DNA of 64,000 nt from Auanema rhodensis (taxonomy: Eukaryota; Animalia; Nematoda), in assembly GCA_964057225.1 (NCBI GenBank), contig OZ059896.1:18848001-18912000 (forward strand), in the 5' to 3' direction. Made by a program: the position numbers and the translations under genes. The notes under the pieces were generated by a model. It had not been told where the DNA came from and made no database searches. It saw only the letters and a program-made list of their open reading frames with translations. This document shows, in pieces, positions 3,936 to 42,515 of this stretch. Each line of letters opens with the position of its first letter. The first letter of the stretch is position 1.

Positions 3936-4348
3936 TGTTCCATACGTGTCCTATGAGTAGAGCGATTGACAACGTCAATCGCTTATAAAACGGAACATTA
4001 TAAAAACAAATAGCTGACGCTACATTTGAGAAACAGGAATTCAATGCAACAATGAACGAACACTTTTTCATATTAAGTTTAATTAAAGAAAGCCCAATTC
4101 AAGCGGAACCAAGTTCCGCGGACCTGATATAACCACTTTTTATGCTCGTAAGGAATACTATATAAGGTTTCCTTACGAGTCCTTTGGGCTGCGACTAGGA
4201 ATCATTATGTAACTTTTATTATTGTAATTTGTATACTTTATCATAAATAAACCTTTCTCTCTATACTCTTTATCATTTATATTTGGAAGAAAAGAAAATA
4301 ATTCCATGTGGTTACCCAGCCGGAACCCTGGGGAACCACCATGGAACG
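3936..4348 (+). repeat. 3' LTR of family A (413 bp; TGTTCCAT...ATGGAACG)
   Basis: 7/8 terminal inverted repeat; preceded by GGCA like the family C 3' LTR; TATATAA near 4159; AATAAACCTTT at 4246-4256; U5 hairpin; abuts array spacer. No second copy in the window. Confidence 0.75.
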
Positions 4349-4593
4349 GTAGTTAATTTTTTTTATCGATTCTAGGTCTGAAAAAATAATAATATGAAAT
4401 AATACTTTTATTTTAGTACCTTATGAGAAAACCTTCTTGAAATTTTAGATATTTTCTCACTCTGAATAGGAACATTCTCGAGAATATTAACACTACATTT
4501 GTTTTACTGCTAGTATTTTTTTCAATTGTTTGAGATAATACAGAATAACACATGTAAACTATCAGGTAATGATTTTTTTAAAACAAAAAATAA

Positions 4594-4666
4594 CGACCCT
4601 GGCAGGACTCGAACCTACAATCTTCGGATCCGAAGTCCGACGCCTTATCCATTAGGCCACAAGGCC
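4594..4666 (-). tRNA. tRNA-Arg(TCG), first copy
   Basis: 73 nt, full cloverleaf, anticodon loop CT-TCG-GA, A box TGGCCTAATGG, B box GGTTCGAGTCC, no encoded CCA, T6 trailer. Confidence 0.97.
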
Positions 4667-4969
4667 ATGTAAATCGCATTCAAATTAGACAATTTGTATA
4701 ACCCAACCCAGTAACTCACTAAAATGTAGTTGATTTTTTCATCGATTCTAGGTCTGAAAAAAGAATAATATGAAATAATACTTTTATTTTAGTACCTTAT
4801 GAGAAAACCTTCGGAGAATTTTTGATATTTTCTCACTCTGAATAGGAACATTCTCGAGAATATTATCACTGCATTTGTTTTACTGCTAGTATTTTTTTCA
4901 ATTGTATGAGATAATACAGAATAAAACATGTAATTTATCAGGTAATGATTTTTTTAAAACAAAAAATAA

Positions 4970-4999
4970 CGACCCTGGCAGGACTCGAACCTACAATCT
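4970..4999 (-). pseudogene. tRNA-Arg 3' fragment (nt 44-73) fused to pol
   Basis: CGACCCTGGCAGGACTCGAACCTACAATCT runs directly into pol sequence at 5000. Confidence 0.9.
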
Positions 5000-5032
5000 A
5001 CGACAGCACATTTAAAAGATATTGAAGAAGTC

Positions 5033-6418
5033 TTGGAAGCAGTAACTCAAATAGGATTCAAAATAAAACTGAAGAAATGCGCATTCGCAAGAAAGGAAGT
5101 AAAATTTCTAGGATACATAGTTGGACAAGAAGGAATTAAACCGGACCCACATAAAATTAAGGCAATACAAGATTATCCCCAACCAAAATCAACAACAGGA
5201 GTAAGAGCTTTCATGGGAGTAGTAAACTACTTCAGAAGGTTCATAAAGAACGCTGCAGGAATAGCAACACCACTCTACAACCTCACTCGGAAAGACACTC
5301 CGTTCAAATGGACAGAAGAAGAAGAAATTGCTTTTAATACTTTGAAGAAAACATTGACTCAAGCACCTGTGTTACAAGCACCAATCCCGAAGCGACCATA
5401 TGTTATTGAAAGTGATGGAAGTATGATAGCAGTTGGCGCTGTACTACTTCAAGCGAAAGACGATCAAGAACCATTACATCCAATAGCTTTTGCTAGTCGG
5501 AAACTCAACAAAGCTGAAAGGAATTATCCACCAATAGAAGTAGAAGCATTAGCTCTTACATTCGCCGTCAAACAATTTCGCACCTACATACTAGGAACAG
5601 CAACCAAAATTATCACGGACCATAGACCACTCACTAGTTTAATGACTAGAAAGGATTTAATAGGTCGTTTAGCAAAATTTCAAATTGTTTTACAAGAATA
5701 CGATATTGAAATTATCTACAGACCAGGAAAATTAAACAGTGTATGTGACGCATTATCACGATATTTTGAAGATGAAATCAACGAAGCAAAACCACCAGCA
5801 AAGAAGAAAAACGAAAGAAAAACGACGGAAGATACTATTCATCAGATAAACACCTTCACGATAGCAGATATTCGATCAGTTCAGAATCAATCAAATTGGA
5901 TAAAAGAAACTATGGATAAAATAAAGAATAATACAGCTGGACGACAACTGACGGACAGATATATTGTGTACAACGATGTACTATACTCAAAACCAAAAAG
6001 AAGCCTACAAGTACCACGAACAATTTTACCACGAGAAGAGCACATAATTAATCCAATTATGAAGAAATTTCATGAAGATCCGACACTCGGAGCTCATCTA
6101 GGAATAAACAAAACAATGGACTCAATATCAAGACGATTTACATGGACTGGAATGCAAGAAGACATTACAAACTACATCAACAGATGTCTTGCTTGTGCGA
6201 AAAGAAAGAACAACCCTCACGAAGCAACGGTGAAACCAATGAAAAATTTTCCAACATCAACAAAACCATGGCAAAGAGTACACATGGATATACTCGGACC
6301 ATTACCTAGGACAGAACAAGAAAACAGATATGTTCTTTCAATTCAAGATTCTTTTTCAAAATGGATAATCGCAATTCCGCTAATCAGACAAACAGATTCA
6401 GATAATATGATAAGATGA
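5033..6418 (+). pseudogene. pol: Truncated Ty3/gypsy pol: RT C-terminus, RNase H, integrase HHCC and start of the core
   Basis: KKCAFARKEVKFLG, VIESDGS...EALAL...TDHRPL, FHEDP..AHLG..CLAC, WQRVHMDILGPL. Lacks the YxDD region and most of the IN core. Confidence 0.93.
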
Positions 6419-6829
6419 TTAAGATTGAGAGGTATAGAAGCAATATTCTTTTTTTATTTCTTAATTCTAAATTAATTTTATAAAGAACTTAACTATTTTT
6501 GTTCAAAAAATGTGAAAATAAACTTATAATTCTTAGAAAAGTTAATTATTGAATTTGAATAATTTTCGTATATAGGATTTTGGATAGAGAGAATGATAAA
6601 TGATATAAGTACTCTTATGAATAATTGAAAATGATTTATGAGAATATAATGAATGGAAAACTGAGTTTTTGTAAAGAGTTTTTGGATATAATTTTTTAAT
6701 AGAAAAGTTTTAGAGTTTTTAAGAAAATATTATAAGCTAACTTTAAGAGAGAGATAAGATTTTTAATTGAATGAGAGATGTAGACGGTAGCGCTTGAGTT
6801 CCTTTACGAGATCCTGTCCAAAAGGAAGG

Positions 6830-6847
6830 ATCTCGGTGGAACCTCCA
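6830..6847 (-). promoter_or_regulatory. Primer-binding site for tRNA-Gln (18 nt)
   Basis: The + strand ATCTCGGTGGAACCTCCA equals the 3' end plus CCA of metazoan tRNA-Gln (tRNA sequence recalled from memory). Confidence 0.9.
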
Positions 6848-7264
6848 CGTTCCATTTAGATTCCCAATGGTTCCATGTTGAGAGATCCAAACAGACTATG
6901 AGACGATGAGTATGATTTTAAATATAAGTGTGTAATGTAAGGTGAAATAAGAAACAAAAGATGAAATATATAAAGGTTTATTGTTCGCATTATAATATAA
7001 TTATACAAAGATTAAAGCTAAAGTTAAGAAAGAGAATATAAAGAAGATAAAGAGAAAGTAAGATAATGAGATAATGAGATGCCTGAGTCTTGAGGACTCA
7101 GGTTTATATATCCATACAACTCCTACTCAGTTTACACAAATTGTTACAAAGCTTATAAAAAGTGCATCTAGAATATTCTCAGAATTGCTTAAAAACTATC
7201 TGCATTAGTTTAATAATAGCAGCTGCCATGGTCAGCTGCTTTCCTTTGAGATATGTATGTAACA
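6848..7264 (-). repeat. 5' LTR of family B (417 bp; TGTTACAT...ATGGAACG on minus)
   Basis: Bounded by the PBS and array spacer; TATATAAA near 7105 and AATAAACCTTT at 6972-6982 on minus. Confidence 0.85.
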
Positions 7265-8639
7265 AATGTAGTTGATTTTTTCATCGATTCTAGGTCTGAA
7301 AAAATAATAATATGCAATAATACTTTTATTTTAGTACCTTATGAGAAAACCTTCGGAGAATTTTTGAAATTTTCTCACTCTGAATAGGAACATTCTCGAG
7401 AATATTATCACTGCATTTGTTTTACTGCTAGTATTTTTTTCAATTGTATGAGATAATACAGAATAAAACATGTAATTTATCAGGTAATGTTTTTTTTAAA
7501 ACAAAAAATCACGACCCTGGCAGGACTCGAACCTACAATCTTCGGATCCGAAGTCCGACGCCTTATCCATTAGGCCACAAGGCCATGTAAATCGCATTCA
7601 AATTAGACAATTTGTATAACCCAACCCAGTAACTCACTAAAATGTAGTTGATTTTTTCATCGATTCTAGGTCTGAAAAAATAATAATATGCAATAATACT
7701 TTTATTTTAGTACCTTATGAGAAAACCTTCGGAGAATTTTTGAAATTTTCTCACTCTGAATAGGAACATTCTCGAGAATATTATCACTGCATTTGTTTTA
7801 CTGCTAGTATTTTTTTCAATTGTATGAGATAATACAGAATAAAACATGTAATTTATCAGGTAATGATTTTTTTAAAACAAAGAATAACGACCCTGGCAGG
7901 ACTCGAACCTACAATCTTCGGATCCGAAGTCCGACGCCTTATCCATTAGGCCACAAGGCCATGCAAATCGCATTCAAATTAGACAATTTGTATAACCCAA
8001 CCCAGTAACTCACTAAAATGTAGTTGATTTTTTCATCGATTCTAGGTCTGAAAAAATGATAATATGAAATAATACTTTTATTTTAGTACCTTATGAGAAA
8101 ACCTTCTTGAAATTTTAGATATTTTCTCACTCTGAATAGGAACATTCTCGAGAATATTAACACTACATTTGTTTTACTGCTAGTATTTTTTTCAATTGTT
8201 TGAGATAATACAGAATAACACATGTAAACTATCAGGTAATGATTTTTTTAAAACAAAAAATAACGACCCTGGCAGGACTCGAACCTACAATCTTCGGATC
8301 CGAAGTCCGACGCCTTATCCATTAGGCCACAAGGCCATGTAAATCGCATTCAAATTAGACAATTTGTATAACCCAACCCAGTAACTCACTAAAATGTAGT
8401 TGATTTTTTCATCGATTCTAGGTCTGAAAAAATAATAATATGCAATAATACTTTTATTTTAGTACCTTATGAGAAAACCTTCGGAGAATTTTTGATATTT
8501 TCTCACTCTGAATAGGAACATTCTCGAGAATATTATCACTGCATTTGTTTTACTGCTAGTATTTTTTTCAATTGTATGAGATAATACAGAATAAAACATG
8601 TAATTTATCAGGTAATGATTTTTTTAAAACAAAAAATAA

Positions 8640-8669
8640 CGACCCTGGCAGGACTCGAACCTACAATCT
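8640..8669 (-). pseudogene. tRNA-Arg 3' fragment fused to pol (duplicate)
   Basis: Same junction as 4970-4999, offset by 3670. Confidence 0.9.
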
Positions 8670-10934
8670 ACGACAGCACATTTAAAAGATATTGAAGAAG
8701 TCTTGGAAGCAGTAACTCAAATAGGATTCAAAATAAAACTGAAGAAATGCGCATTCGCAAGAAAGGAAGTAAAATTTCTAGGATACATAGTTGGACAAGA
8801 AGGAATTAAACCGGACCCACATAAAATTAAGGCAATACAAGATTATCCCCAACCAAAATCAACAACAGGAGTAAGAGCTTTCATGGGAGTAGTAAACTAC
8901 TTCAGAAGGTTCATAAAGAACGCTGCAGGAATAGCAACACCACTCTACAACCTCACTCGGAAAGACACTCCGTTCAAATGGACAGAAGAAGAAGAAATTG
9001 CTTTTAATACTTTGAAGAAAACATTGACTCAAGCACCTGTGTTACAAGCACCAATCCCGAAGCGACCATATGTTATTGAAAGTGATGGAAGTATGATAGC
9101 AGTTGGCGCTGTACTACTTCAAGCGAAAGACGATCAAGAACCATTACATCCAATAGCTTTTGCTAGTCGGAAACTCAACAAAGCTGAAAGGAATTATCCA
9201 CCAATAGAAGTAGAAGCATTAGCTCTTACATTCGCCGTCAAACAATTTCGCACCTACATACTAGGAACAGCAACCAAAATTATCACGGACCATAGACCAC
9301 TCACTAGTTTAATGACTAGAAAGGATTTAATAGGTCGTTTAGCAAAATTTCAAATTGTTTTACAAGAATACGATATTGAAATTATCTACAGACCAGGAAA
9401 ATTAAACAGTGTATGTGACGCATTATCACGATATTTTGAAGATGAAATCAACGAAGCAAAACCACCAGCAAAGAAGAAAAACGAAAGAAAAACGACGGAA
9501 GATACTATTCATCAGATAAACACCTTCACGATAGCAGATATTCGATCAGTTCAGAATCAATCAAATTGGATAAAAGAAACTATGGATAAAATAAAGAATA
9601 ATACAGCTGGACGACAACTGACGGACAGATATATTGTGTACAACGATGTACTATACTCAAAACCAAAAAGAAGCCTACAAGTACCACGAACAATTTTACC
9701 ACGAGAAGAGCACATAATTAATCCAATTATGAAGAAATTTCATGAAGATCCGACACTCGGAGCTCATCTAGGAATAAACAAAACAATGGACTCAATATCA
9801 AGACGATTTACATGGACTGGAATGCAAGAAGACATTACAAACTACATCAACAGATGTCTTGCTTGTGCGAAAAGAAAGAACAACCCTCACGAAGCAACGG
9901 TGAAACCAATGAAAAATTTTCCAACATCAACAAAACCATGGCAAAGAGTACACATGGATATACTCGGACCATTACCTAGGACAGAACAAGAAAACAGATA
10001 TGTTCTTTCAATTCAAGATTCTTTTTCAAAATGGATAATCGCAATTCCGCTAATCAGACAAACAGATTCAGATAATATGATAAGATGATTAAGATTGAGA
10101 GGTATAGAAGCAATATTCTTTTTTTATTTCTTAATTCTAAATTAATTTTATAAAGAACTTAACTATTTTTGTTCAAAAAATGTGAAAATAAACTTATAAT
10201 TCTTAGAAAAGTTAATTATTGAATTTGAATAATTTTCGTATATAGGATTTTGGATAGAGAGAATGATAAATGATATAAGTACTCTTATGAATAATTGAAA
10301 ATGATTTATGAGAATATAATGAATGGAAAACTGAGTTTTTGTAAAGAGTTTTTGGATATAATTTTTTAATAGAAAAGTTTTAGAGTTTTTAAGAAAATAT
10401 TATAAGCTAACTTTAAGAGAGAGATAAGATTTTTAATTGAATGAGAGATGTAGACGGTAGCGCTTGAGTTCCTTTACGAGATCCTGTCCAAAAGGAAGGA
10501 TCTCGGTGGAACCTCCACGTTCCATTTAGATTCCCAATGGTTCCATGTTGAGAGATCCAAACAGACTATGAGACGATGAGTATGATTTTAAATATAAGTG
10601 TGTAATGTAAGGTGAAATAAGAAACAAAAGATGAAATATATAAAGGTTTATTGTTCGCATTATAATATAATTATACAAAGATTAAAGCTAAAGTTAAGAA
10701 AGAGAATATAAAGAAGATAAAGAGAAAGTAAGATAATGAGATAATGAGATGCCTGAGTCTTGAGGACTCAGGTTTATATATCCATACAACTCCTACTCAG
10801 TTTACACAAATTGTTACAAAGCTTATAAAAAGTGCATCTAGAATATTCTCAGAATTGCTTAAAAACTATCTGCATTAGTTTAATAATAGCAGCTGCCATG
10901 GTCAGCTGCTTTCCTTTGAGATATGTATGTAACA
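8670..10934. mobile_element. Fragment B, copy 2 (pol 8703-10088, PBS 10500-10517, LTR 10518-10934)
   Basis: Same 461-aa translation and same junctions as copy 1, offset by 3670 bp. Confidence 0.9.
8703..10088 (+). pseudogene. pol: Truncated Ty3/gypsy pol (duplicate)
   Basis: Identical translation to 5033..6418. Confidence 0.93.
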
Positions 10935-13900
10935 AATGTAGTTGATTTTTTCATCGATTCTAGGTCTGAAAAAATAATAATATGCAATAATACTTTTATT
11001 TTAGTACCTTATGAGAAAACCTTCGGAGAATTTTTGAAATTTTCTCACTCTGAATAGGAACATTCTCGAGAATATTATCACTGCATTTGTTTTACTGCTA
11101 GTATTTTTTTCAATTGTATGAGATAATACAGAATAAAACATGTAATTTATCAGGTAATGTTTTTTTTAAAACAAAAAATCACGACCCTGGCAGGACTCGA
11201 ACCTACAATCTTCGGATCCGAAGTCCGACGCCTTATCCATTAGGCCACAAGGCCATGTAAATCGCATTCAAATTAGACAATTTGTATAACCCAACCCAGT
11301 AACTCACTAAAATGTAGTTGATTTTTTCATCGATTCTAGGTCTGAAAAAATAATAATATGCAATAATACTTTTATTTTAGTACCTTATGAGAAAACCTTC
11401 GGAGAATTTTTGAAATTTTCTCACTCTGAATAGGAACATTCTCGAGAATATTATCACTGCATTTGTTTTACTGCTAGTATTTTTTTCAATTGTATGAGAT
11501 AATACAGAATAAAACATGTAATTTATCAGGTAATGATTTTTTTAAAACAAAGAATAACGACCCTGGCAGGACTCGAACCTACAATCTTCGGATCCGAAGT
11601 CCGACGCCTTATCCATTAGGCCACAAGGCCATGCAAATCGCATTCAAATTAGACAATTTGTATAACCCAACCCAGTAACTCACTAAAATGTAGTTGATTT
11701 TTTCATCGATTCTAGGTCTGAAAAAATGATAATATGAAATAATACTTTTATTTTAGTACCTTATGAGAAAACCTTCTTGAAATTTTAGATATTTTCTCAC
11801 TCTGAATAGGAACATTCTCGAGAATATTAACACTACATTTGTTTTACTGCTAGTATTTTTTTCAATTGTTTGAGATAATACAGAATAACACATGTAAACT
11901 ATCAGGTAATGATTTTTTTAAAACAAAAAATAACGACCCTGGCAGGACTCGAACCTACAATCTTCGGATCCGAAGTCCGACGCCTTATCCATTAGGCCAC
12001 AAGGCCATGTAAATCGCATTCAAATTAGACAATTTGTATAACCCAACCCAGTAACTCACTAAAATGTAGTTGATTTTTTCATCGATTCTAGGTCTGAAAA
12101 AATAATAATATGCAATAATACTTTTATTTTAGTACCTTATGAGAAAACCTTCGGAGAATTTTTGAAATTTTCTCACTCTGAATAGGAACATTCTCGAGAA
12201 TATTATCACTGCATTTGTTTTACTGCTAGTATTTTTTTCAATTGTATGAGATAATACAGAATAAAACATGTAATTTATCAGGTAATGATTTTTTTAAAAC
12301 AAAAAATAACGACCCTGGCAGGACTCGAACCTACAATCTTCGGATCCGAAGTCCGACGCCTTATCCATTAGGCCACAAGGCCATGTAAATCGCATTCAAA
12401 TTAGACAATTTGTATAACCCAACCCAGTAACTCACTAAAATGTAGTTGATTTTTTCATCGATTCTAGGTCTGAAAAAATAATAATATGCAATAATACTTT
12501 TATTTTAGTACCTTATGAGAAAACCTTCGGAGAATTTTTGAAATTTTCTCACTCTGAATAGGAACATTCTCGAGAATATTATCACTGCATTTGTTTTACT
12601 GCTAGTATTTTTTTCAATTGTATGAGATAATACAGAATAAAACATGTAATTTATCAGGTAATGATTTTTTTAAAACAAAGAATAACGACCCTGGCAGGAC
12701 TCGAACCTACAATCTTCGGATCCGAAGTCCGACGCCTTATCCATTAGGCCACAAGGCCATGCAAATCGCATTCAAATTAGACAATTTGTATAACCCAACC
12801 CAGTAACTCACTAAAATGTAGTTGATTTTTTCATCGATTCTAGGTCTGAAAAAATGATAATATGAAATAATACTTTTATTTTAGTACCTTATGAGAAAAC
12901 CTTCTTGAAATTTTAGATTTTTTCTCACTCTGAATAGGAACATTCTCGAGAATATTAACACTACATTTGTTTTACTGCTAGTATTTTTTTCAATTGTTTG
13001 AGATAATACAGAATAACACATGTAAACTATCAGGTAATGATTTTTTTAAAACAAAAAATAACGACCCTGGCAGGACTCGAACCTACAATCTTCGGATCCG
13101 AAGTCCGACGCCTTATCCATTAGGCCACAAGGCCATGTAAATCGCATTCAAATTAGACAATTTGTATAACCCAACCCAGTAACTCACTAAAATGTAGTTG
13201 ATTTTTTCATCGATTCTAGGTCTGAAAAAATAATAATATGAAATAATACTTTTATTTTAGTACCTTATGAGAAAACCTTCGGGAAATTTTTGATATTTTC
13301 TCACTCTGAATAGGAACATTCTCGAGAATATTATCACTGCATTTGTTTTACTGCTAGTATTTTTTTCAATTGTTTGAGATAATACAGAATAAAACATGTA
13401 ATTTATCAGGTAATGATTTTTTTAAAACAAAAAATAACGACCCTGGCAGGACTCGAACCTACATTCTTCGGATCCGAAGTCCGACGCCTTATCCATTAGG
13501 CCACAAGGCCATGTAAATCGCATTCAAATTAGACAATTTGTATAACCCAACCCAGTAACTCACTAAAATGTAGTTGATTTTTTCATCGATTCTAGGTCTG
13601 AAAAAATAATAATATGCAATAATACTTTTATTTTAGTACCTTATGAGAAAACCTTCGGAGAATTTTTGAAATTTTCTCACTCTGAATAGGAACATTCTCG
13701 AGAATATTATCACTGCATTTGTTTTACTGCTAGTATTTTTTTCAATTGTATGAGATAATACAGAATAAAACATGTAATTTATCAGGTAATGATTTTTTTA
13801 AAACAAAGAATAACGACCCTGGCAGGACTCGAACCTACAATCTTCGGATCCGAAGTCCGACGCCTTATCCATTAGGCCACAAGGCCATGCAAATCGCATT

Positions 13901-16354: not shown

Positions 16355-16357
16355 TTA

Positions 16358-31300: not shown

Positions 31301-32084
31301 TTATACAAATTGTCTAATTTGAATGCGATTTACATGGCCTTGTGGCCTAATGGATAAGGCGTCGGACTTCGGATCCGAAGATTGTAGGTTCGAGTCCTGC
31401 CAGGGTCGTTATTTTTTGTTTAAAAAAAATCATTACCTGATAGTTTACATGTTTTATTCTGTATTATCTCATACAATTGAAAAAAATACTAGCAGTAAAA
31501 CAAATGCAGTGATAATATTCTCGAGAATGTTCCTATTCAGAGTGAGAAAATATCAAAAATTTCCCGAAGGTTTTCTCATAAGGTACTAAAATAAAAGTAT
31601 TATTTCATATTATTATTTTTTCAGACCTAGAATCGATAAAAAAAATCAACTACATTTTAGTGAGTTACTGGGTTGGGTTATACAAATTGTCTAATTAGAA
31701 TGCGATTTACATGGCCTTGTGGCCTAATGGATGAGGCGTCGGACTTCGGATCCGAAGATTTTAGGTTCGAGTCCTGCCACGGTCGTTATTTTTTGTTTCA
31801 AAAAAATCATTACCTGATAGTTTACATGTTTTATTCTGTATTATCTCATACAATTGAAAAAAATACTAGCAATAAAACAAATGCAGTGATAATATTCTCG
31901 AAAATGTTCCTATTCAGAGTGAGAAAATATCAAAAATTTCCCGAAGGTTTTCTCATAAGGTACTAAAATAAAAGTATTATTTCATATTATTATTTTTTCA
32001 GACCTAGAATCGATAAAAAAATTAACTACATTTTAGTGAGTTACTGGGTTGTGTTATACAAATTGTCTAATTAGAATGCGATTT

Positions 32085-32421
32085 CGTTCCGTTATGCTCT
32101 CACGTCGATCCTATAGACCAATAAAGCCTACAAGATGAGTGTGATAATATTCCAGATGTAGCGGTAGATAAAGAGCATAATGGATAAACATAAGACTCGA
32201 GAAAGAAAGGTTTATTATGTCTACATGATTACAATAAGTTATATAAGTCTACATAAAGATATAAAGTGAAAGAGAGCTAAGAAAGGAAGACCAACCATCC
32301 ATAGTCATTCCATAAGGCAAAGCTGAAGTCTGTGTTCCATATGAAGGGCGTGTCGTCCTCTCTCAGCCTCATGTCGTCTGATTCTAACCCGCCTGCTACG
32401 TATTGATTTCCGAATGGAACG
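32085..32421 (-). repeat. 3' LTR of element C
   Basis: No differences seen by eye versus 42171-42507; termini CGTTCC...GGAACG; preceded on minus by GAAAAAATGGCA (weak PPT). Confidence 0.97.
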
Positions 32422-32918: not shown

Positions 32919-35900
32919 TTATTTACGGGAAATTATTTGAAATTGATGAAGTTTTATAATCATATATGCTTTGAAACTGAAATGCTTTTTGATTATAATA
33001 ATATCCATATGTATTCTCTCAAATGGTTTTGATGGTATTTCAAATTGACCCATAGGCTGAACGGTCATAGCGTGAGGATCTTTCTTCCTTTGTGCGCATT
33101 TAACGCATTGTTTCACAAAAATTGCTATGTCCGTTTGCATGTTTGTCCAGCAGAATCTTCGTAGTATGGCTTCTTTAGTTTTGTTAATTCCTTGATGTGC
33201 TCCAATTGCTGGGTCTTCGTGAAATTCTTCGATAACCTTGTTGATAAGTTCGCTTTCCCTTGGTAAAATCAAAGCTGGGTGTGGTCGTTTTCTGCTTGGT
33301 TTTGTGTATAACATGTTGTCAATAACACAATAACGATCATTAGAAAGCATGTTCTTTTTCGTTCTGTATTCTATTTCGGCGATAGTTCTCTTTATCCAAG
33401 GTGTATCCTCTTGAATTGCTCTAATGTCAGGTACATTAACGAAATTAATTTGAGCTTTCGGAATTTCTTTTGTTTTCTTTTTCTTTTCCGGTTTAGGATC
33501 GTTTGCTTCATCTCCAATGTATCGTGAGAGAGCATCACAGACTTTGTTTAGTCTGCCTTCTCGGTATCTTATCTCGATATCGTATTCCTGTATGACTAAT
33601 TGAAATTTTGCTAGTCTTCCAAAAAGGTCTCTACGAGTCAATAAGCTTGTTAATGGTCGATGGTCTGTGATACAGATTGTATGTGATCCAAGTATATATG
33701 TTCGAAACTGAGCTAAAGCGTATACGAGTCCTAACGCTTCTATTTCAATAGGAGCATAGTTGCGTTCCGCTTTTACAAGTTTACGGCTTGCAAATGCAAT
33801 TGGATGTAAATTTTTGAGTGGTTCATTGGGATCTTCAGGTTGTAATAACACTGCTCCCACTGCGATATTACTACCGTCACTTTCTATAATGAACATACGG
33901 TCTGATCTTGGTGGTTTTAAGACCGGTGCTTGGATCAATTTTCTTTTTAGTGTATCAACAGCTTGTTGACTTTTGTCATTCCATTGAAATTCCACATCAA
34001 GTTTTGTAAGGTCGTATAAAGGGCTTGCGATGTGTGCAAAATCCTTAATAAATTTCCGAAAGAATCCTACCATTCCCAAAAATGCTCTTACTCCTGTAGG
34101 TGACTTTGGAGCAGGATAGTCTTGAATGGCGGAGACTTTCTGTGGATCTGGTTTGACCCCATCTCTTCCGACAATTAAACCAAGAAATTTTACTTCAGGT
34201 CTTGCAAAAGCGCATTTCTTGAGTTTTATTTTCATGCCTAATTTCTTTACTTCTCTGAGAATCTCAGCTATATCGTCAAGATGTTGTTCTGCAGTGTCTG
34301 ATATAACGAGTAGATCATCCAAATAAACAAAGAGTCGGCATTTACATCGGCTTTGAAGGTATCGTACTGCTGTTTGAAAGGTATGTGGCGCTCCACATAA
34401 CCCCATAGGCATCCTTCTATATTGATAAGTACCGGTGTTTGTTGTAAATGCTGTTAATGGTCGATCTGATTTCTTTAATGCTATTTGGAAGAATCCGGAT
34501 ACTAAATCAAAGTTAGAAAAATATTGTGATCCGGCTGCCATATCGACAATGTCAGAGATGTTAGGTATGATGTACGTTTGCTTGCGAGTGACGTTATTTA
34601 GAGCACGGAAATCGGTTACGAAACGGAATGTTTCATCTTTCTTTTTGACTAAAACTACAGGACTATTGAAAAGAGATGTGGATGGTTCAATTATATTTTG
34701 CTTCAGCATCTCCTGTACCTGTCTTTCGACTTCTTCTTGTTTGCCTATAGGGATACGCGTTATACGCGGTCTAGGCATGTCCATATCTGTTCTTAGAGGT
34801 ATTGAATGCTCTACAGGTCCTTTAAATAGTCCTATTTGTTTATCCTCATTTAAAAATGCATCTCTATTACGGAGAATACAAAGCTGAAGAAGATCTTTTT
34901 GTTCTTTAGTTAGGTCGGCGTCTTTTAAATCAAGATCGTTCATAAAGTCCTGAGGAAAATGAGGTAATTTATTTTCCCAATCCGCTTCGGGTGGTATATA
35001 GTCTGGATTGTGTTCGGTCGTAAAGATCTCGTATTGTGGCAGTACGCCTATTTTTGCTTTGTCAATAATGTTTCCGGGTGATAGATCTATAGGATGATCA
35101 GTGTTGTTTTTGAATGGCATGGTAATTGAATTGACGTCTCGAAATGCTGTTTCGTAGGTGGTAGATATCGTCTTTTCTTCATCGGGTTGTAGCATGGCGG
35201 CTTCGTTGTGTGATATGGGTTCAGCTAACCTTACTGGTATTCTACAGGTCTGATGAGGAAAGATACATTGTGGATTTAAGTTTATCAAATTAATGACAAA
35301 TGATGTTTTTCTAATATTCCCGTTATTTCCATTGGCTAACGGTACTACGCGGTTTCCGATTTCTAACGTTTGTTTGAATGGTCGAAGTTTCATACCGATA
35401 TTTTGACGATCGAGTGTTTTCATAAAATCTAATCCAATTAATGCTGGTGATGGACAGTCTTCATCTCTTGAAATGAAGAATGTATGATCTATTTCATATC
35501 CAGCAATTTCTACGGTTAAATCAATTGTTCCCAGAAATCGAAATGCTGATCCGTTTGCTGTCGTTGCAACTGATTTATCCTTTTTTACAAAATCATTCAA
35601 AGTTAAGTAATGTAATGTCGAGAGTCTGATATAACTAATCGATGATCCTGAATCCCAAAGAGTTAGGATTAGTCTATCGTTAACAGTCATCAATAGCAGT
35701 GGTAGAGATTGGTCTTTGCGATTGGAAACTGAACAAACTATGGGCATAGCTAGTGGAACTAAAGTGAGAAACGATGGATAGTACTGTTTCATTATGTTCC
35801 TTGGTATTGGCTGATCAGGTTGACTTACTAGCTCTAATGTTTCTTCATATGTGGGAAGATCGTTGGTTTGATCTCGGAGTTCGATATGCATGACTTGCAT

Positions 35901-36203
35901 GCCTATTGGTTTGAAGAAATATATTTTCGCAACGAAGGCTAGTACGATCAGTATAACTACAATAATTGTAATTGCTCCGATAGTGATGAGTGTTCGTTCA
36001 ATCGTTCCTGCTATTGTATCGACAAATGAATTCCATATACTTTTGGTGAATTCATTGGCTTTGGAGATGTAATCACTACTTTTCTTCAATATGCTGAATG
36101 CTGATGATATTTTTGGATCATGATGAATTGTGTGAAGCACGTGATTTTGACGAATCGATGCTAAACTAGCACCATAAGCAATGGCTGTTGTCATTGAGTA
36201 CAC
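32919..36203 (-). CDS. pol: C-terminal half of the broken polyprotein: Env stem and TM, protease, RT, RNase H, IN zinc finger; IN core deleted
   Basis: TM ITIGAITIIVVILIVLAFVA; LWDSGS; YRRMPMGL; YLDD; IIESDGS/EALGL/TDH; H-H-C-C; homology stops at RIHMDI near 33000. Confidence 0.95.
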   Translation of the reverse strand: MYSMTTAIAYGASLASIRQNHVLHTIHHDPKISSAFSILKKSSDYISKANEFTKSIWNSFVDTIAGTIERTLITIGAITIIVVILIVLAFVAKIYFFKPIGMQVMHIELRDQTNDLPTYEETLELVSQPDQPIPRNIMKQYYPSFLTLVPLAMPIVCSVSNRKDQSLPLLLMTVNDRLILTLWDSGSSISYIRLSTLHYLTLNDFVKKDKSVATTANGSAFRFLGTIDLTVEIAGYEIDHTFFISRDEDCPSPALIGLDFMKTLDRQNIGMKLRPFKQTLEIGNRVVPLANGNNGNIRKTSFVINLINLNPQCIFPHQTCRIPVRLAEPISHNEAAMLQPDEEKTISTTYETAFRDVNSITMPFKNNTDHPIDLSPGNIIDKAKIGVLPQYEIFTTEHNPDYIPPEADWENKLPHFPQDFMNDLDLKDADLTKEQKDLLQLCILRNRDAFLNEDKQIGLFKGPVEHSIPLRTDMDMPRPRITRIPIGKQEEVERQVQEMLKQNIIEPSTSLFNSPVVLVKKKDETFRFVTDFRALNNVTRKQTYIIPNISDIVDMAAGSQYFSNFDLVSGFFQIALKKSDRPLTAFTTNTGTYQYRRMPMGLCGAPHTFQTAVRYLQSRCKCRLFVYLDDLLVISDTAEQHLDDIAEILREVKKLGMKIKLKKCAFARPEVKFLGLIVGRDGVKPDPQKVSAIQDYPAPKSPTGVRAFLGMVGFFRKFIKDFAHIASPLYDLTKLDVEFQWNDKSQQAVDTLKRKLIQAPVLKPPRSDRMFIIESDGSNIAVGAVLLQPEDPNEPLKNLHPIAFASRKLVKAERNYAPIEIEALGLVYALAQFRTYILGSHTICITDHRPLTSLLTRRDLFGRLAKFQLVIQEYDIEIRYREGRLNKVCDALSRYIGDEANDPKPEKKKKTKEIPKAQINFVNVPDIRAIQEDTPWIKRTIAEIEYRTKKNMLSNDRYCVIDNMLYTKPSRKRPHPALILPRESELINKVIEEFHEDPAIGAHQGINKTKEAILRRFCWTNMQTDIAIFVKQCVKCAQRKKDPHAMTVQPMGQFEIPSKPFERIHMDIIIIKKHFSFKAYMIIKLHQFQIISRK

Positions 36204-36528
36204 TCGAGATGATAAGTTGGTGTATAAGTGTGCTCCGGTGAATTTTAATGGCGTGATCTTTTCATGATGAAGTCCGAAAGAAATAAGCTGTGATCACGTA
36301 CCAACAGATATCTGGTCTAGCGAAGGTGAATGGAAAGGAATTAATGGGACTGCAGACGTCAGTCTTGTATCAATGTGGGACGGACTTCATCATGAAAAGA
36401 TCACGCCATTAAAATTCACCGGAGCACACTTATACACCAACTTATCATCTCGAGTGTACTCAATGACAACAGCCATTGCTTATGGTGCTAGTTTAGCATC
36501 GATTCGTCAAAATCACGTGCTTCACACA
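36129..36528. repeat. Perfect 148-bp inverted repeat (36129-36276 and 36381-36528) with a 104-bp spacer
   Basis: The arms are reverse complements; spacer plus right arm reads as env coding sequence on the + strand. Confidence 0.95.
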
Positions 36529-39500
36529 GTGCCATTCACAGTGTGATTGTGATATATAGTCTTTTGTAATACTACCGGGCAAACATGTATATGTAATATC
36601 TCGCTGCCTACAAATCTTGCGGCTATATCTTCTCTTCCCAGTATTGTACGCATAGCTATTGTTGGTTCAATTTGTAAAATTGATCTCCATAATTCAAGAT
36701 ACCTATTTTGGATCTCACATATTGATTCGTATGACTCTTTAAAATGTTTCTGCAGTTCTTCTTGAATCATAGTTGTAGCATATTGCAAATGATCTTGTGC
36801 AATTCTGCTTGTTATGTTTTGGCGAAACTGTTGTTCGGAGTCAATTTTTGTGGCAATGTATTGAGCATTAGCCTGTACAGACTCTATATCGGTGGCTGTA
36901 GGCGTTGATGATGCTCTATGTTTACGAATCAAAGATATTGGTGTATATGTAGTTTCTTCCATTATTGGAATTTGTTGATCTTGATGAACAGCGTAGAGAA
37001 TAGTCGTTGGCGGCGCGCGGGTCGATATTGTTGCGCGCGCGGTTGTCGTTGCGGTTGTATGGCGCGCCGTTGTTTCGGGCTGGGCCATCGATGAAGGCGC
37101 GCGCGCGGTAGTTGCTGCGGCTGCCCGAGGGCTTGTAGATGTTTGCGGCAGTATTGCGGGATCTGTTGTGATCAGCGCCTCACGATCGATTATAGGGAGG
37201 GCTGCCATCTCGGCCGCGCCGCCTGCCGCGTTGCTTGGCGCACGCGTCGTGGTTTGCAACGATTTAAGTTGGATTTTCTCTGTCATTAATCTTTTTAACT
37301 GTTCTGATGATATTCTACTAGATGTATTAGGCAAAATATTATCGTTTAGTAGTGGTAAAAATATTTCCAATAATAAGTCCTTAGAGATGTTGTTGGGCTC
37401 TATGAGCTTGGGATGTGGTCCAATTGGTATTCCAAAATTATTCTTGATGTCATAGAACAATTTATCAGTATCAAGTACAAACATTCGTGAAGATGGAATG
37501 TTTATAAATTTTATGTCATCAATATCAGCTGCTGTTTTATTTCTTCTAAGCGTAACGAGAGTTTTTAGCTCATGTACAAGGTCAATTGTATCTTTTATAA
37601 ATTTGCTGTTTCTTTCTTCTTGATCAGTTAATAATTGTTTCCTTATTGGTGGCATTTTTACGAATGCTTTTAATATTTCTTGTCTTGATGGAACTGTTAA
37701 TTTGTCTTCAATTATAACTGGTGTATTGGCTAAATCAAGAGCGATAGTTTCAGCACGCTCTCGATAAGTGCCTTCTTTTGTACGAATTAACCGATCAAAT
37801 TCAATAACGGTCAAACGATCTGATATTTGTTGAAGAAGTTGCCTGGATGTTAAATAAGATATTCCAGCTTTAGTAGCTAAAGCTAATTCTCTTTGAGCAA
37901 CATATTGTAAAATGGCTTCGTCTTTATCACGGAAATCATATTGTTTGAGAAAATGTCTTAAAGATTTCTCATAAATTTGAATTTTAAAGAAAAATTCAAA
38001 ATTTTCACGATGGGCTATTATCCATTCTTTCAAGGAATATGTAGGGTCTACCATACGTCTTCCTTTAATTAGAGGAATAATTTGTGTAATTCCTGGATTA
38101 CTCATAAGTGGTCTTAAAAATGGATATGGGCAAATTCGAAGCGTGTACGTTTCAAAATCTTCAACATCATTTATTCTATCCTGATCGAATGGGAATGAGC
38201 ATTTTGTAGAAGTTGCGCGTTTAGGTCTTTTGAACGGCAATTTCTTAAATTCTCGTTCAATTAGGAGTGTGATATTGTTATCATTAGGATATTTGGGGAA
38301 TGTTATATAATTTCCTGATGTTGTATGGAATGCTGGTTGTCTAAAGCAGGATGCAATTGGTTTTGGTGTTATTTTACTCGAGAGGATAAGCGCTGATTGT
38401 GTACTTGGAATCAAAATAGTTTCTTTGCTTATTATAGCATCGTAGTAATGCATATCGATATAATTACAACGGGAATCCGATGTTTGGGGATCCCATATAA
38501 TTATTGATGTATTTGATTTGCAATTACCATGATGAGCACTACAACCTTCAGTGTTTAGTATTAAATTGGATAATATTGTATCATCGGGCATGCGGGTCAT
38601 GACTCCGCGCTCTAGTACTAAACGCGGCCGCTCCTCGCACTCGTCGCGGCTAAACGCGCGCGCCGGATCATAGGAGGGCTCTGGGGTTGCTTGTGCTATA
38701 CTATCGATTCTCTCCAGCTCCATGTTATTCCATTTGCGATCGCGAATCGCCTGCCTGCACTCGTGCGCCGCTATAGGCTGCACCCTATCGATTGTTCTGT
38801 TTGTGTCGCGGAGGAATAACAAATCGCATACACACAGCTTGTGTACTTCCTTCGAGCAGCGCCACGCGTCCCACTCGTAAGCCGTGTGGTTTCGCGTGTA
38901 TAAATGGATTTGTGTACGTAGCACATGATTTGTTTCTGTTAATTTACATTTCTTTACTACTGGTGGAACTAATAAGGCTCCTCCAGTTGCTTTTGTGCAA
39001 ATTTGATATGAAGTTACACATGGCAGGAAAATTGCTACTGTGATTGCCATTACAACCGTTAGTGATAACGGTGAAAGGGTCACAGAGTTAATTCGTGGTG
39101 TGCTTCTATCTCGTCCTCTTGATTGATCTCTTTGATTGTTAAAATGGACTCTTCTTTGTCCGTTATGTTCATTAGTCCTTCCTCTTCTACTATTGTTTGA
39201 AGGATTAAAATTGTTTGAATGCCAGTTGTTATTAAATCGTCCCGAATTTCGTTCATGATTATTGTTACGGCGATAATTAGCAAAAGAGCCGTTACGATTT
39301 TGGTTGTTATTATATTTTGAAAAGTTTTTATTTTTCTGATAATTTTGATAATTATGATAATTTTTATTGTTTTGGTTATCACGTGGATAATTACGGTCGA
39401 AATTTCGGTTATCTCGTCTCTCGTTTGTGCGCGCGAAAGGAGCTAGTGCTTTGTTTACAGCATTGACTAGCATGGACTGCGTGTCTGTTGTCTGGTTCAT

Positions 39501-40760
39501 TATCGATTCTTCCCAGCGAGCGGCCTCAATCGCATCCGTGAAGGATTTTGGCTTCGCTCGAATCACAGCTGGTTTCAGAGTATTTTTTAGTCCTCTGAGG
39601 AAAGTTGATCTTAATATGTAATCTTTGTGAGGGTCATCCGTGGCAAAAGCGCTTAGTGCAATCGTTCTCAGTGATTGAGCGTAAGCGTCAATTGTCAGAT
39701 CCCCTTGGGTTGTATTTTGGAGATTGATCAGCGCGGGGTCTTGATTATATTCAGGACACAGCTTAGATGTTAAAGCTCTTAACAGGTCATTCCATGAACC
39801 GGTGGTTTTTAATTGTTCAGGTACTTGTCTGTACGCTTCTTCCGCTGCTTCGTTTTTAAGAAGCAAAGGTAGAAGGGCCAATCTCTCCGGGATTACCAGA
39901 CCTACAGCGTTGGCAAATAGGTTGAATTTAGCCGTGAAATCTCGAAAGTTGCGACTGCCATCATAAGTTGGGCAGTAGGGTGATAACAAGGCTTGCGCTA
40001 TGGTAGTTTTCCCTGCCCCAGGTAAAGAAGGTTCAGTTGCCATATTATTTGTACGGGCAGATGGCATTTTTATCACTCTGCCTGTTGTTAATGAGTTCTC
40101 AGACACAGGGGTTGTGTGTACTGAGCGGCTGGGTTGGTTTGGTGCTTTTGAACTTCCTGTTTTTGTATTTGATAAAATTGGGGTTGAAGTTTGGTTATCA
40201 GTAATAGCAAGATGTGTATGTTCGGGTGGTTGTATGGGAGATAAATTAATGTTTGGAACCGACGAGTATCTATTCGTGTGGCTGGTGTTCAAGTTTCGAT
40301 CTTTTGGTGAACGATTGAAGAGATCAGAAACTATGTTTTTAAAAGTTTGTAAACCGCCTGCACTAGTAGTGGCTACTGAAGGTGAAACTGTTGGTTCAGG
40401 GATGGACAGAGAGAGAGATGCGTCCGATTTGCTTGAGTTTTTATTTTTATTTTTCTTATTTTTATTTGAATTAGAGGAGCGTACCTTTTTAGCAGTAACT
40501 GGTGTTTGTTCTTCCACTATGACGGATGTTTCTTCTCCTCCTGGTGGTACGTAATCCTCGTCGCTTAATCGTTCAGTAGGTGAATAAGTGCCTGCACGAG
40601 GAGTAAAGAATTTGTCGGTTTTGTGCTCGGCTTTCTGCTCGTCTTCGATTATAGCGATGCTCTGTGCGCGAGCTCGGCTTCTGGTGAGTGGAGCTGAGTC
40701 TCGCAGATCAAAATCAGTTCGTGTACTGAGAGGTACAGCTGATCGAAATCGCTTGTCCAC
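36522..40760 (-). CDS. gag-env: N-terminal half of the broken polyprotein: Gag (capsid and N/R-rich tail) fused in frame to a signal sequence and class III (gB-like) glycoprotein ectodomain
   Basis: PTYDGS..F, QG.LTIDAY...FLRGL capsid motifs; hydrophobic LTVVMAITVAIFLPC; Cys-rich ectodomain with NxS/T sites; LWRSILQIEPTIAMRTILGREDIAARFVGSEILHIHVC. Confidence 0.9.
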   Translation of the reverse strand: MDKRFRSAVPLSTRTDFDLRDSAPLTRSRARAQSIAIIEDEQKAEHKTDKFFTPRAGTYSPTERLSDEDYVPPGGEETSVIVEEQTPVTAKKVRSSNSNKNKKNKNKNSSKSDASLSLSIPEPTVSPSVATTSAGGLQTFKNIVSDLFNRSPKDRNLNTSHTNRYSSVPNINLSPIQPPEHTHLAITDNQTSTPILSNTKTGSSKAPNQPSRSVHTTPVSENSLTTGRVIKMPSARTNNMATEPSLPGAGKTTIAQALLSPYCPTYDGSRNFRDFTAKFNLFANAVGLVIPERLALLPLLLKNEAAEEAYRQVPEQLKTTGSWNDLLRALTSKLCPEYNQDPALINLQNTTQGDLTIDAYAQSLRTIALSAFATDDPHKDYILRSTFLRGLKNTLKPAVIRAKPKSFTDAIEAARWEESIMNQTTDTQSMLVNAVNKALAPFARTNERRDNRNFDRNYPRDNQNNKNYHNYQNYQKNKNFSKYNNNQNRNGSFANYRRNNNHERNSGRFNNNWHSNNFNPSNNSRRGRTNEHNGQRRVHFNNQRDQSRGRDRSTPRINSVTLSPLSLTVVMAITVAIFLPCVTSYQICTKATGGALLVPPVVKKCKLTETNHVLRTQIHLYTRNHTAYEWDAWRCSKEVHKLCVCDLLFLRDTNRTIDRVQPIAAHECRQAIRDRKWNNMELERIDSIAQATPEPSYDPARAFSRDECEERPRLVLERGVMTRMPDDTILSNLILNTEGCSAHHGNCKSNTSIIIWDPQTSDSRCNYIDMHYYDAIISKETILIPSTQSALILSSKITPKPIASCFRQPAFHTTSGNYITFPKYPNDNNITLLIEREFKKLPFKRPKRATSTKCSFPFDQDRINDVEDFETYTLRICPYPFLRPLMSNPGITQIIPLIKGRRMVDPTYSLKEWIIAHRENFEFFFKIQIYEKSLRHFLKQYDFRDKDEAILQYVAQRELALATKAGISYLTSRQLLQQISDRLTVIEFDRLIRTKEGTYRERAETIALDLANTPVIIEDKLTVPSRQEILKAFVKMPPIRKQLLTDQEERNSKFIKDTIDLVHELKTLVTLRRNKTAADIDDIKFINIPSSRMFVLDTDKLFYDIKNNFGIPIGPHPKLIEPNNISKDLLLEIFLPLLNDNILPNTSSRISSEQLKRLMTEKIQLKSLQTTTRAPSNAAGGAAEMAALPIIDREALITTDPAILPQTSTSPRAAAATTARAPSSMAQPETTARHTTATTTARATISTRAPPTTILYAVHQDQQIPIMEETTYTPISLIRKHRASSTPTATDIESVQANAQYIATKIDSEQQFRQNITSRIAQDHLQYATTMIQEELQKHFKESYESICEIQNRYLELWRSILQIEPTIAMRTILGREDIAARFVGSEILHIHVCPVVLQKTIYHNHTVNGTV

Positions 40761-42157
40761 TTTGGTAGCGCTCTTGGTTTGGAAAAACCTTGAGTGTTTA
40801 GTAACGTGGGGGATTTTGAGACGTTAATGAGTGTTATGGATAAGGGGTTTTGGAAAAGGGTTGAGAAAGCTGTGAGTAACTGGTTTGTATAGTCGGCGTT
40901 AAGGAATGAATCTAAGTTGTGGCCTTTAACAGAGATCCGCCTACTACCGTATGAAAATTTGGACTTTGTTCGCTTTCCAATTTAATATTCTTAAATGTAT
41001 ATAATTCAACCAGTTTGTATATGTTCAAAAATGTTCAGTGCTCACTTGATTGGTGCCTGAGCAATCTCATTAGTCCTTATTCCCATTTTTTTTTCTTTTT
41101 CTGACGATTCTGATCTTCTTGGACTCACGAGTGATCGAAAATGCCACGAAAATGGACTTTGGTAAATGTTCAAAGGATTTTAGCGGTTTTCATAATGTAC
41201 ATTCGTAATAGCATTACTCTTTTAAGGAAGCAATTTGGAAAACGAATGAGTACCGTAGTCCCATCATGATCAGAAATCTAGTTTTAAAATTATGGCTAGG
41301 AATAGATGACTAAAGATTACAATAACTATATTTAAAGAATTATGGTGTTTAGGAATGAGTCTTATGCTTCAAAACAACAATAACGGTATGAGGAAGGTGA
41401 CATATAGTAAGGGGAGAAAATCCAAACTGATATGCTTAAGCCAACACGACCTGATAGACAATCACTAATAATAATTCAGTTCGTAAAATTGTACAGGATT
41501 TTTCGGACTATAGCGATCTTAAATTTCACTTTTCATAATATTCCTCCCATTTAGGTGAGGTTTCCCGTGTAAATTCAATGCGTTATCAAAATATTTTTGG
41601 ATGTTAATGGCAAAAAGTTGTCTGAACAGAAATGTAACGCAAAATAAAATAGTCCTGATCGCAAAATATGAAATAATCTCAATTTGGTGCGCAAAGTTGT
41701 TTCATCCACAAAAAATAAAGAAATAACCGTGGCTATTCTTTCCTCGAAGCCAAAATCAATCCTTAAAAGGAGAAAGTGTGGGCATAAATCTCAATAAAAA
41801 TTATCCTTGGGTGAATTTGTTCACTAATTCATCCTAGGGTCCTCAAAAATGCTTCGAGTTCGGGTAACAGAGTATTCGATTTTAACAGCAAGGTTATAAA
41901 AATTGTTGGGTTCAGACAGACAGAAAATTGTGAACAAACGGGAAAATATAACTTCAGTTTCAAAAAATATAAAATATCCATCTCCAAAAGGAGTGGTCCT
42001 TGCATCTGTTCCCTTTTAAACGTTGTTGGCCCCACCGTATTGTGTTAAGACATGGAGTAGATGGTTTAGAGATATAAGAGAATTCAGATTCAATGAAATA
42101 TTGAAAATAACGACATATAAGAGAAAATAGTCAAGAAATCAAGATAAAAATGTTCGA

Positions 42158-42170
42158 GGTGGAACCTCCA
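42158..42170 (-). promoter_or_regulatory. Primer-binding site for tRNA-Gln (13 nt)
   Basis: TGGAGGTTCCACC directly after the 5' LTR on minus; same core as the family B PBS. Confidence 0.88.
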
Positions 42171-42507
42171 CGTTCCGTTATGCTCTCACGTCGATCCTAT
42201 AGACCAATAAAGCCTACAAGATGAGTGTGATAATATTCCAGATGTAGCGGTAGATAAAGAGCATAATGGATAAACATAAGACTCGAGAAAGAAAGGTTTA
42301 TTATGTCTACATGATTACAATAAGTTATATAAGTCTACATAAAGATATAAAGTGAAAGAGAGCTAAGAAAGGAAGACCAACCATCCATAGTCATTCCATA
42401 AGGCAAAGCTGAAGTCTGTGTTCCATATGAAGGGCGTGTCGTCCTCTCTCAGCCTCATGTCGTCTGATTCTAACCCGCCTGCTACGTATTGATTTCCGAA
42501 TGGAACG
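42171..42507 (-). repeat. 5' LTR of element C
   Basis: Direct repeat of 32085-32421, followed on minus by the PBS. Confidence 0.97.
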
Positions 42508-42515
42508 ATTTACAT

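Follow-up and report, generated by a model that had tools for sequence, protein, structure and literature searches.

Ends of three Ty3/gypsy families in the 5' flanks of a nematode tRNA-Arg array: possible guidance by Pol III promoter factors

The window analysed here, i.e., the whole 64-kb stretch of Auanema rhodensis DNA, contains a tandem array of 113 tRNA-Arg(TCG) genes with a measured unit of 376/377 bp, which agrees with the 377-bp unit given in the preliminary description. The array comprises a minus-strand arm of 17 genes (4349..15979) that is split by two cassettes of a long terminal repeat (LTR) family, B, and plus-strand arms to the left (15984..32084) and right (42508..64000) of an LTR element, C. 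Array orientation inverts at ~15980, and fold-back joints are seen in the window at 15980, in the env of C, at the pol/UTR of B, and at 45466-46686. Within each unit, the 240-bp 3' spacer is the AT-richest part (24% GC). A TATA-like element, TATACAAA, lies at unit phase -34 relative to the mature tRNA 5' end; the copy at 32055..32062 (+) starts 30 bp before the C junction. All foreign DNA within the array matches the nematode GAG-ENV-POL element group, and no unrelated elements were found there in the window.

Among the three families A, B, and C, only C has both ends, a target-site duplication (TSD), and env visible in the window. Its 3' LTR (32085..32421, minus strand, 337 bp, CGTTCC...GGAACG) and 5' LTR (42171..42507, minus strand) are identical, and the latter adjoins a tRNA-Gln-type primer-binding site (PBS; 42153..42170, minus strand). 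The 4-bp TSD, ATTT, is present on the plus strand at 32081..32084 and at 42508..42511, the right copy occupying -8..-5 relative to the tRNA-Arg gene immediately downstream (42516..42588, +), as described before; the left junction is at phase -5 and the right one at phase -8. One ORF piece (36522..40823, minus strand) encodes gag followed in frame by a herpesvirus-gB-like env, and another (32919..36293, minus strand) encodes the C-terminal part of env, protease, reverse transcriptase (RT), RNase H, and an integrase zinc finger; the integrase core and C-terminus are absent from this second piece. The env break (36129..36528) is a 148-bp perfect inverted duplication (36129-36276/36381-36528). The 5' UTR and the beginning of gag (C 40407-41586) recur in inverted form, at 100% identity and between non-LTR breakpoints, at 45507..46686 (+). 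The LTRs, the PBS, and the pol order PR-RT-RH-IN are those of Ty3/gypsy elements (Metaviridae), and the position of the gB-like env between gag and pol is that of the gB-type group. For env, Pfam Glycoprotein_B was matched at E 1.9e-8, a score below the curated cut-off, 41 of 42 PDB matches were herpesvirus gB-type chains (best E 0.0015), and a protein from Auanema that carries gB and protease domains was 56% identical.

Family A is represented by a 3' LTR (3936..4348, +, 413 bp, TGTTCC...GGAACG), the right end of which meets the array at 4348/4349, phase -60; strand was assigned from the positions of TATA/AATAAA, PBS, and the PPT side. This is a true LTR end, as contigs in two of four public sequencing runs continue from 4348 into a Gln PBS. 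The DNA 5' of this LTR (1..3935, +), with ORFs at 3131-3733 (+) and 1-417 (-), probably corresponds to family A's 3' internal region; high-depth contigs from all four runs extend over its final ~240 bp. The ORFs yielded no Pfam family, Atlas match, or homologue apart from one weak, uninformative match, and 1..3935 holds no pol or env; no coding gene was identified for family A, which shows an LTR and a PBS as its only Ty3/gypsy features. No remnant of its target tRNA survives in the window.

The 5' LTR of family B (6848..7264, minus strand, 417 bp, TGTTAC...GGAACG) adjoins a tRNA-Gln-type PBS (6830..6847, minus strand), and its outer end meets the array at 7264/7265, phase -57, the strand being assigned by the same positions as for A. 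For both A and B, the tRNA-proximal end is missing and no TSD is visible. A 3' remnant (~+44 onward) of the tRNA presumably behind B (4967..4999, minus strand) joins, at a non-LTR breakpoint, a pol fragment (5000..6418, +) that is inverted relative to LTR B and encodes the RT end, RNase H, and the integrase zinc finger, ending where the integrase core begins. The RT-RH-IN order, the LTR, and the PBS are Ty3/gypsy features. A second, identical cassette copy lies at 8670..10934 (tandem duplication, offset 3,670 bp), and the cassette pair represents an exact 3,722-bp duplication and counts as one insertion event. No env DNA of A or B occurs in the window, although B may have carried env, judging from the adjacent pol fragment, which is possibly not its own. 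Of the earlier statement that all three families are env-class, the part on C is borne out, env being seen in the window in C only.

Since the three LTRs are alike only in their termini and in weak similarity (local scores of 77-90 versus shuffle maxima of 65-78, with A versus B not above shuffles), they are distinct families; for A, the shared features are limited to the termini and the type of PBS. A midpoint-rooted pol tree with 35 rows places the sequences of B and C inside a 12-row clade (100/100) that holds all named nematode matches; the env-bearing row P0003 is the sister (99/99) of the pol in the B cassette, which is, however, inverted relative to LTR B. The best pol and env matches come from Auanema, Heterorhabditis, and Caenorhabditis. 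Nematode GAG-ENV-POL elements with HSV/gB-type env were reportedly described by Sacco et al. in 2022. By their tRNA-Gln PBS and by pol sequences within the nematode clade, the elements are assigned to this published GAG-ENV(gB)-POL group. Gag-env-pol order, a gB-like env, and an LTR length of 300-420 bp are common to the window elements and the nematode GAG-ENV-POL errantiviruses/metaviruses (PMC13524379), and among the nematode rows listed there, 8 of 15 have a tRNA-Gln PBS, two of these sharing their 12-mer with B and C. The window copies are broken, unlike those elements. The main text of that paper does not contain 'target site', 'integration site', or 'insertion site' and describes no tRNA association; its supplement 1 gives the coordinates of the nematode relatives, those in Caenorhabditis latens, remanei, nigoni, and tropicalis among them.

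The precise LTR ends lie at phases -60 (A), -57 (B), and -8..-5 (C). The preliminary description placed every junction in a tRNA 5' flank, which holds directly for C; for A and B, the reported -60 and about -57 were recovered, but as unit phases, the visible junctions being the tRNA-distal ones, ~245 bp away on the 3' side of the closest intact tRNA. It was likewise borne out that A and B are different families in opposite orientations (distinct LTRs, plus versus minus strand) that landed about 3 bp apart; they reside in different unit copies yet are 3 bp apart in phase. A single event giving rise to both was rejected, as LTRs, orientation, and unit copies differ, and the three insertions are likely independent.

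Chance expectations were obtained by Monte Carlo simulation of junction phases, either uniform or with the tRNA body excluded (latter values in parentheses), for windows picked after the data had been seen. The probability that all three ends fall within 63 bp upstream is 0.46% (0.90%), within 100 bp upstream 1.9% (3.6%), and within any 55-bp arc 6.5% (8.8%); that of any pair within 3 bp is 5.5% (6.8%). The 63-bp upstream window contains three of three LTR ends versus none of six non-LTR breakpoints (phases +41, -67, +59, +112, +96, and +80; Fisher p 0.012), and the 100-bp window three of three versus one of six (p 0.048), the six not being independent of one another. The target 4-mers (ATTT, GTAG, and AATG) have no consensus. 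A simple AT-rich preference, raised earlier as an alternative, was rejected because the 24%-GC 3' spacer holds none of the three LTR ends; PBS-mediated recombination with the array tRNA was rejected because the PBS is of Gln type and the array of Arg type. With assumed sizes, the probability that a family of 20-100 copies strikes a 47-kb stretch is 1-8% in a genome of 60-100 Mb. The 5'-flank positional bias is real and modestly above chance, with three events, one per family in the window, at two positions 50 bp apart.

In public contigs, taken from five of the 15 runs listed and with flanks of at most 30 letters next to LTR ends, C is high-copy and its flanks are unrelated to one another; two weak hints of a tie to tRNA genes were seen. 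With depth as a rough guide, the main C LTR contig reaches 5,688 versus 48-99 for long diverged-copy contigs in run X3, and 1,790 versus 15-24 in run X4; C-related LTRs also occur in long low-depth contigs (4,655, 2,080, and 1,979 bp). The first hint is another A flank (two contigs, run X4) in which a TATA begins at a distance of exactly 30 bp from the same end of the LTR, for which chance over four flanks is 13-21%; the second is one X8 contig that, by eye, joins a C LTR to an apparent 3' part of a tRNA-Gln gene plus a T-run, and that is maybe a chimera. A flank recurring at the C 5' end in three of four runs is absent from the window and has no recognisable tRNA start at -8, and pooled C 3'-end flanks (3-5 contigs per run) agree at 0.52-0.56 versus 0.53-0.59 expected for unrelated flanks. 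The LTR-end plus PBS pattern had no match in viral contigs and four in metagenome contigs, all without pol homology or tRNA genes and taken as chance. Searches for related loci by pol gave 14 pattern matches in viral contigs and 47 in prokaryote genomes, none of them confirmed.

As the most probable explanation, favoured at slightly less than an even chance, three related nematode GAG-ENV-POL-type Ty3/gypsy families were guided to the 5' flanks of array units by Pol III promoter factors; such guidance of the integration complex would likely be why the LTR ends lie there. TBP/TFIIIB would bind the TATA-like element at -34, with transcription starting near -4. C, which has its junction 30 bp away from this element's first T, would then sit at or just upstream of the predicted start, i.e., where a Ty3-like element would be placed, and would have been delivered to the promoter-proximal edge in the manner of Ty3 and DGLT-A, with A and B placed on the distal side at a TRE5-like distance. 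The yeast TFIIIB footprint covers -40 to -5 from the transcription start site (PMC6673722). That the two positions bracket this footprint, as had been proposed, holds loosely, as a yeast-based footprint would end near -44, 13-16 bp short of A and B. An array of 100+ copies would tolerate losing one unit, and later deletions, inversions, and the tandem duplication would have led to the present broken copies.

The integrase C-terminus had been suggested as the place to look for a tether. Because both window integrases are incomplete, the chromodomain was looked for in relatives, and one of the Ty3 Brf1-binding type was not found. The integrase of the C. japonica relative aligns to Ty3 up to residue 1437 of 1547, after which ~40 residues remain; from this alignment, the intact relative appears to have no room for that domain. 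Pfam detected a chromodomain in none of four relatives, the gene models of which may be incomplete and in which a vestigial domain could escape Pfam. A tether would be convergent, the candidates being RNase H and the integrase N- or C-terminus.

Less probable, and on balance unlikely, is passive accessibility, in which the families insert widely and favour nucleosome-free or bent DNA beside occupied promoters, so that the edges of Pol III complexes are hit without a protein tether. This accounts for the 5'-flank bias, for two positions instead of one, and for unrelated flanks elsewhere; it is consistent with relatives that lack a Ty3-like chromodomain, and the TATA of the X4 flank, with its 30-bp spacing, suits a Pol II promoter equally. 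However, so broad a preference predicts neither two families 3 bp apart nor the exact TATA spacing of C. It is more doubtful still that high-copy, untargeted families built up in a large, redundant, unstable array that tolerates them, with three ends clustered by luck. The abundance of C by contig depth, the any-arc probability, and the selection of this finding from a very large scan fit such a course; the absence of unrelated elements inside the array, the absence of all three ends from the AT-richest spacer, and an arc already known from Ty3, DGLT-A, and TRE5 argue against it. Finally, it is very improbable that C is the sole event and that the A and B junctions stem from rearrangement or misassembly, despite several fold-back joints, the exact 3.7-kb duplication, and the lack of a piece bridging 4348/4349 among the contig pieces listed, as both junctions coincide exactly with LTR termini and show no microhomology with the array, which is rare from random breakage.

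If guidance by Pol III promoter factors holds, the safe-haven strategy would extend to animals and env-bearing elements, another independent solution to Pol III tethering would be added, and insertions would mark nematode Pol III start sites; if not, what remains is an unstable tRNA array of the ordinary kind that holds three elements from an already known group of families. The wider proposition, that an env-bearing nematode endogenous virus clade uses the Pol III initiation machinery as its tether, sister families taking opposite sides of it, as the first Ty3-like tRNA-promoter targeting by an animal LTR element and convergent without Ty3's chromodomain, is put forward tentatively, as somewhat short of probable. 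Table 1 of PMC5911963 lists only yeast and social amoeba hosts for position-specific integration upstream of tRNA genes, and no animal LTR element targeting such sites was found in the full texts searched, which included a minority of the subscription papers.

Among known systems, Cer1, the best-studied nematode gypsy element (Pro primer), is located in the protein gene plg-1, which counts against targeting. Dewa elements are animal non-LTR elements that target tRNA genes. Dada DNA transposons insert inside the tRNA by sequence recognition (PMC8869645). Dada and Dewa share with the window elements multicopy tRNA genes as animal insertion sites; unlike A, B, and C, for which no shared target sequence was seen, they are not LTR elements. 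Ty3 of S. cerevisiae integrates 2-3 bp upstream of where transcription begins (bioRxiv 2021.07.27.453949), and like it, C is a Ty3/gypsy LTR element that follows a TATA-like element and sits where Pol III is predicted to start. In Ty3 the TSD measures 5 bp, the element stands ~15 bp ahead of the mature tRNA, env is lacking, and Brf1 is bound by the integrase chromodomain, whereas the window elements have a 4-bp TSD at -8..-5 (C), a second site at -57/-60, and a relative without room for the chromodomain. A and B do not lie at or just upstream of the start, as Ty3 and DGLT-A do. The dictyostelid LTR element DGLT-A and the non-LTR elements TRE5, NLTR-A, and NLTR-B insert upstream of tRNA genes, at distances of 13-33, 40-54, 2-6, and 39-64 bp (PMC5911963). 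These elements differ in their amoeba hosts, lack of env, and dispersed target genes, and in a preference documented by many copies versus three here; together, their distances span those of A, B, and C, and DGLT-A achieves its targeting without a chromodomain, through RNase H that binds TFIIIC.

The window consists mostly of a tandem tRNA-Arg(TCG) array of 113 genes with a 376/377 bp unit, oriented on the minus strand to ~15980 and on the plus strand thereafter. The tRNA sequence is identical in 95 of the 112 extracted copies, and the median divergence between array units is 9 changes per 310 bp; more than 110 near-identical genes (4349-64000), organised in higher-order sub-repeats, are unusually many for one anticodon. 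After array masking, the only non-array DNA was 1-4348, 5003-7263, its copy at 8673-10933, 32085-42505, and 45507-46686. A single TATA-like element is present in the last 70 bp of the unit, at -34 relative to the mature tRNA 5' end.

Three related Ty3/gypsy families (A, B, and C) end inside this array. Element C (32085-42507, minus strand) is bounded by identical 337-bp LTRs, with the TSD ATTT at -8..-5; it carries a Gln-type PBS and is ordered gag, gB-like env, protease, RT, RNase H, and integrase zinc finger, with the integrase core missing. Its env matches Pfam gB (E 1.9e-8, below the curated cut-off), a best PDB entry (E 0.0015), and an Auanema protein (56%, env query residues 1-330), and is broken, containing a 148-bp inverted duplication. 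The junction of C lies 30 bp from the first T of the TATA-like element; as the usual TATA-to-start spacing is ~30 bp, transcription is predicted to start near -4, which would place C immediately upstream of the start. The 3' LTR of A (3936-4348, plus strand) joins the array at -60, and contigs from two of four public sequencing runs pass directly from this base into a Gln PBS, which identifies the end as a true LTR terminus. At least 3.9 kb before this LTR (1-3935) are devoid of pol or env; orphan ORFs occur there on both strands (200 aa, 3131-3733; at least 139 aa, 1-417 minus) and are possible accessory genes. The 5' LTR of B (6848-7264, minus strand) has a Gln PBS, and its outer end joins the array at -57. 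The terminus GGAACG is common to all three LTRs, the rest being barely alignable. This end is not the canonical CA, and C also begins with CG (CG...CG); Drosophila errantiviruses have non-canonical LTR ends too.

In tRNA sense order, the array runs to -57, is followed by the B cassette (LTR, PBS, and an inverted pol fragment), and resumes from ~+44 inside the tRNA, as expected if insertion of B at -57 had been followed by a deletion that took the 3' end of B and the 5' half of the gene. The cassette was then copied exactly (3,722 bp duplication). In a 35-row tree made up of the adjoining pol fragment and the top 34 region-covering matches of 122 stored proteins, this fragment, which may belong to B or to A, groups with the env-bearing Auanema protein P0003 as its sister (99/99). 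The flank of A is the third unit after B, hence A and B are separate events. The preliminary description, in which env-class families lie just upstream of tRNA genes and A and B land ~3 bp apart in opposite orientations, is largely right as an observation: the junctions at -60, -57, and -8..-5 hold, but env was seen only in C, and neither TSD, tRNA-proximal end, nor env was seen for A or B within the window.

The window sequence was found in 15 public runs, always as contigs, and five of these runs were examined. For A, 24 of 47 loose ends were listed, comprising the PBS, one flank (run X4), and one second LTR-like end (run X6). In the X4 flank, a TATA begins at precisely the distance seen for C, 30 bp from the corresponding LTR end; this is weak, since chance gives it in 13-21% over four flanks. 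In X6, behind 4350, the second LTR-like end lies 20 bp from the A LTR end, with four PBS-like bases, reflecting either a local insertion cluster or a rearranged copy. The C LTR is abundant, its depth exceeding that of long diverged-copy contigs ~60- to 120-fold, although depth is only a rough guide. Among the 24 of 63 loose ends listed for C, the 3'-end flanks are mutually unrelated, diverged relatives occur in contigs of 2-4.7 kb, and one 5'-end flank recurs in three of four runs. This flank is not in the window and has no recognisable tRNA start; unless the copy is oppositely oriented, it argues against C being strictly fixed at -8. In one contig of run X8, LTR sequence of C adjoins what resembles the 3' half of a tRNA-Gln gene. 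No related copies were found in scans of viral contigs, metagenome contigs, and prokaryote genomes.

Pol III targeting is a plausible interpretation, resting on three events, and insertion guided by a factor at Pol III promoters would be our tentatively favoured reading of these sequences. In Monte Carlo runs on the 377-bp unit (uniform, tRNA body excluded, and AT-weighted, respectively), all three ends fell ≤63 bp upstream in 0.46%, 0.90%, and 0.09%, and ≤100 bp upstream in 1.9%, 3.6%, and 1.6%. Compared with six non-LTR breakpoints (+41, -67, +59, +112, +96, and +80), Fisher p was 0.012 (63-bp window) and 0.048 (100 bp), to be read knowing that these breakpoints stem from three or four events. 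Passive accessibility, instead of factor guidance, is a less probable account of the same upstream positions. A simple sequence preference, previously named as an alternative, is unlikely, because the AT-richest part of the unit (3' spacer, 24% GC) holds no LTR ends and the target 4-mers of A, B, and C share no common motif. Chance in a tolerant array is unlikely too; under the same three schemes, any 55-bp arc held all three ends in 6.5%, 8.8%, and 11.8%, and any pair lay ≤3 bp apart in 5.5% (uniform). Artefact is very improbable. Four fold-back or inverted joints (~6410, 15980, 36129-36528, and 45466-46686) lie beside the exact 3.7-kb duplication in the same 64 kb, so that either the locus is very unstable or chimeras arose during amplification or assembly. 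Both pol copies (32919-33000; 6290-6418) end shortly past the integrase core start, and the two truncations look independent.

The best pol matches come from Auanema (59-64%), Heterorhabditis (57%), and Caenorhabditis (50-61%), which makes a rhabditid nematode the probable host. The nematode GAG-ENV-POL gB-type group was reportedly first described by Sacco et al. 2022. The gene order and PBS of C are those described for such elements in the available text of PMC13524379, and a Gln PBS occurs in 8 among 15 of the 36 nematode rows of its supplement; the element class is already known, and A, B, and C are new members. Targeting is not general among nematode gypsy elements, as Cer1 of C. elegans is located in a protein gene (PMC3315495, in part). 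The literature searched, which did not extend to Sacco et al. 2022 and the bioRxiv supplements, yielded no LTR element of an animal that targets tRNA promoters, and the accessible part of a 2026 review names only yeast (PMC13269885); Pol III targeting would, if it is real, represent a new variant. According to the available sections, the insertion site of Ty3 lies 2-3 bp ahead of the TSS (bioRxiv 10.1101/2021.07.27.453949; PMC6673722), and C likewise lies immediately upstream of its, here predicted, start. The Brf1-binding chromodomain of Ty3 is located after the CTD, whereas the alignment of a C. japonica relative with Ty3 Gag-Pol ends at residue 1437 of 1547, leaving ~40 residues of the relative, and Pfam detected no chromodomain in four of four relatives; guidance would therefore differ from Ty3's device. 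It is feasible without a chromodomain, as DGLT-A targets via RNase H contact with TFIIIC (excerpts of PMC6101501; PMC5006619), and upstream distances of 2-6, 13-33, and 39-64 bp are documented for dictyostelid elements (PMC5911963, in part). In animals, Dada elements target tRNA genes, but these are DNA transposons that insert inside the gene (PMC8869645, available text), whereas A, B, and C are LTR elements.
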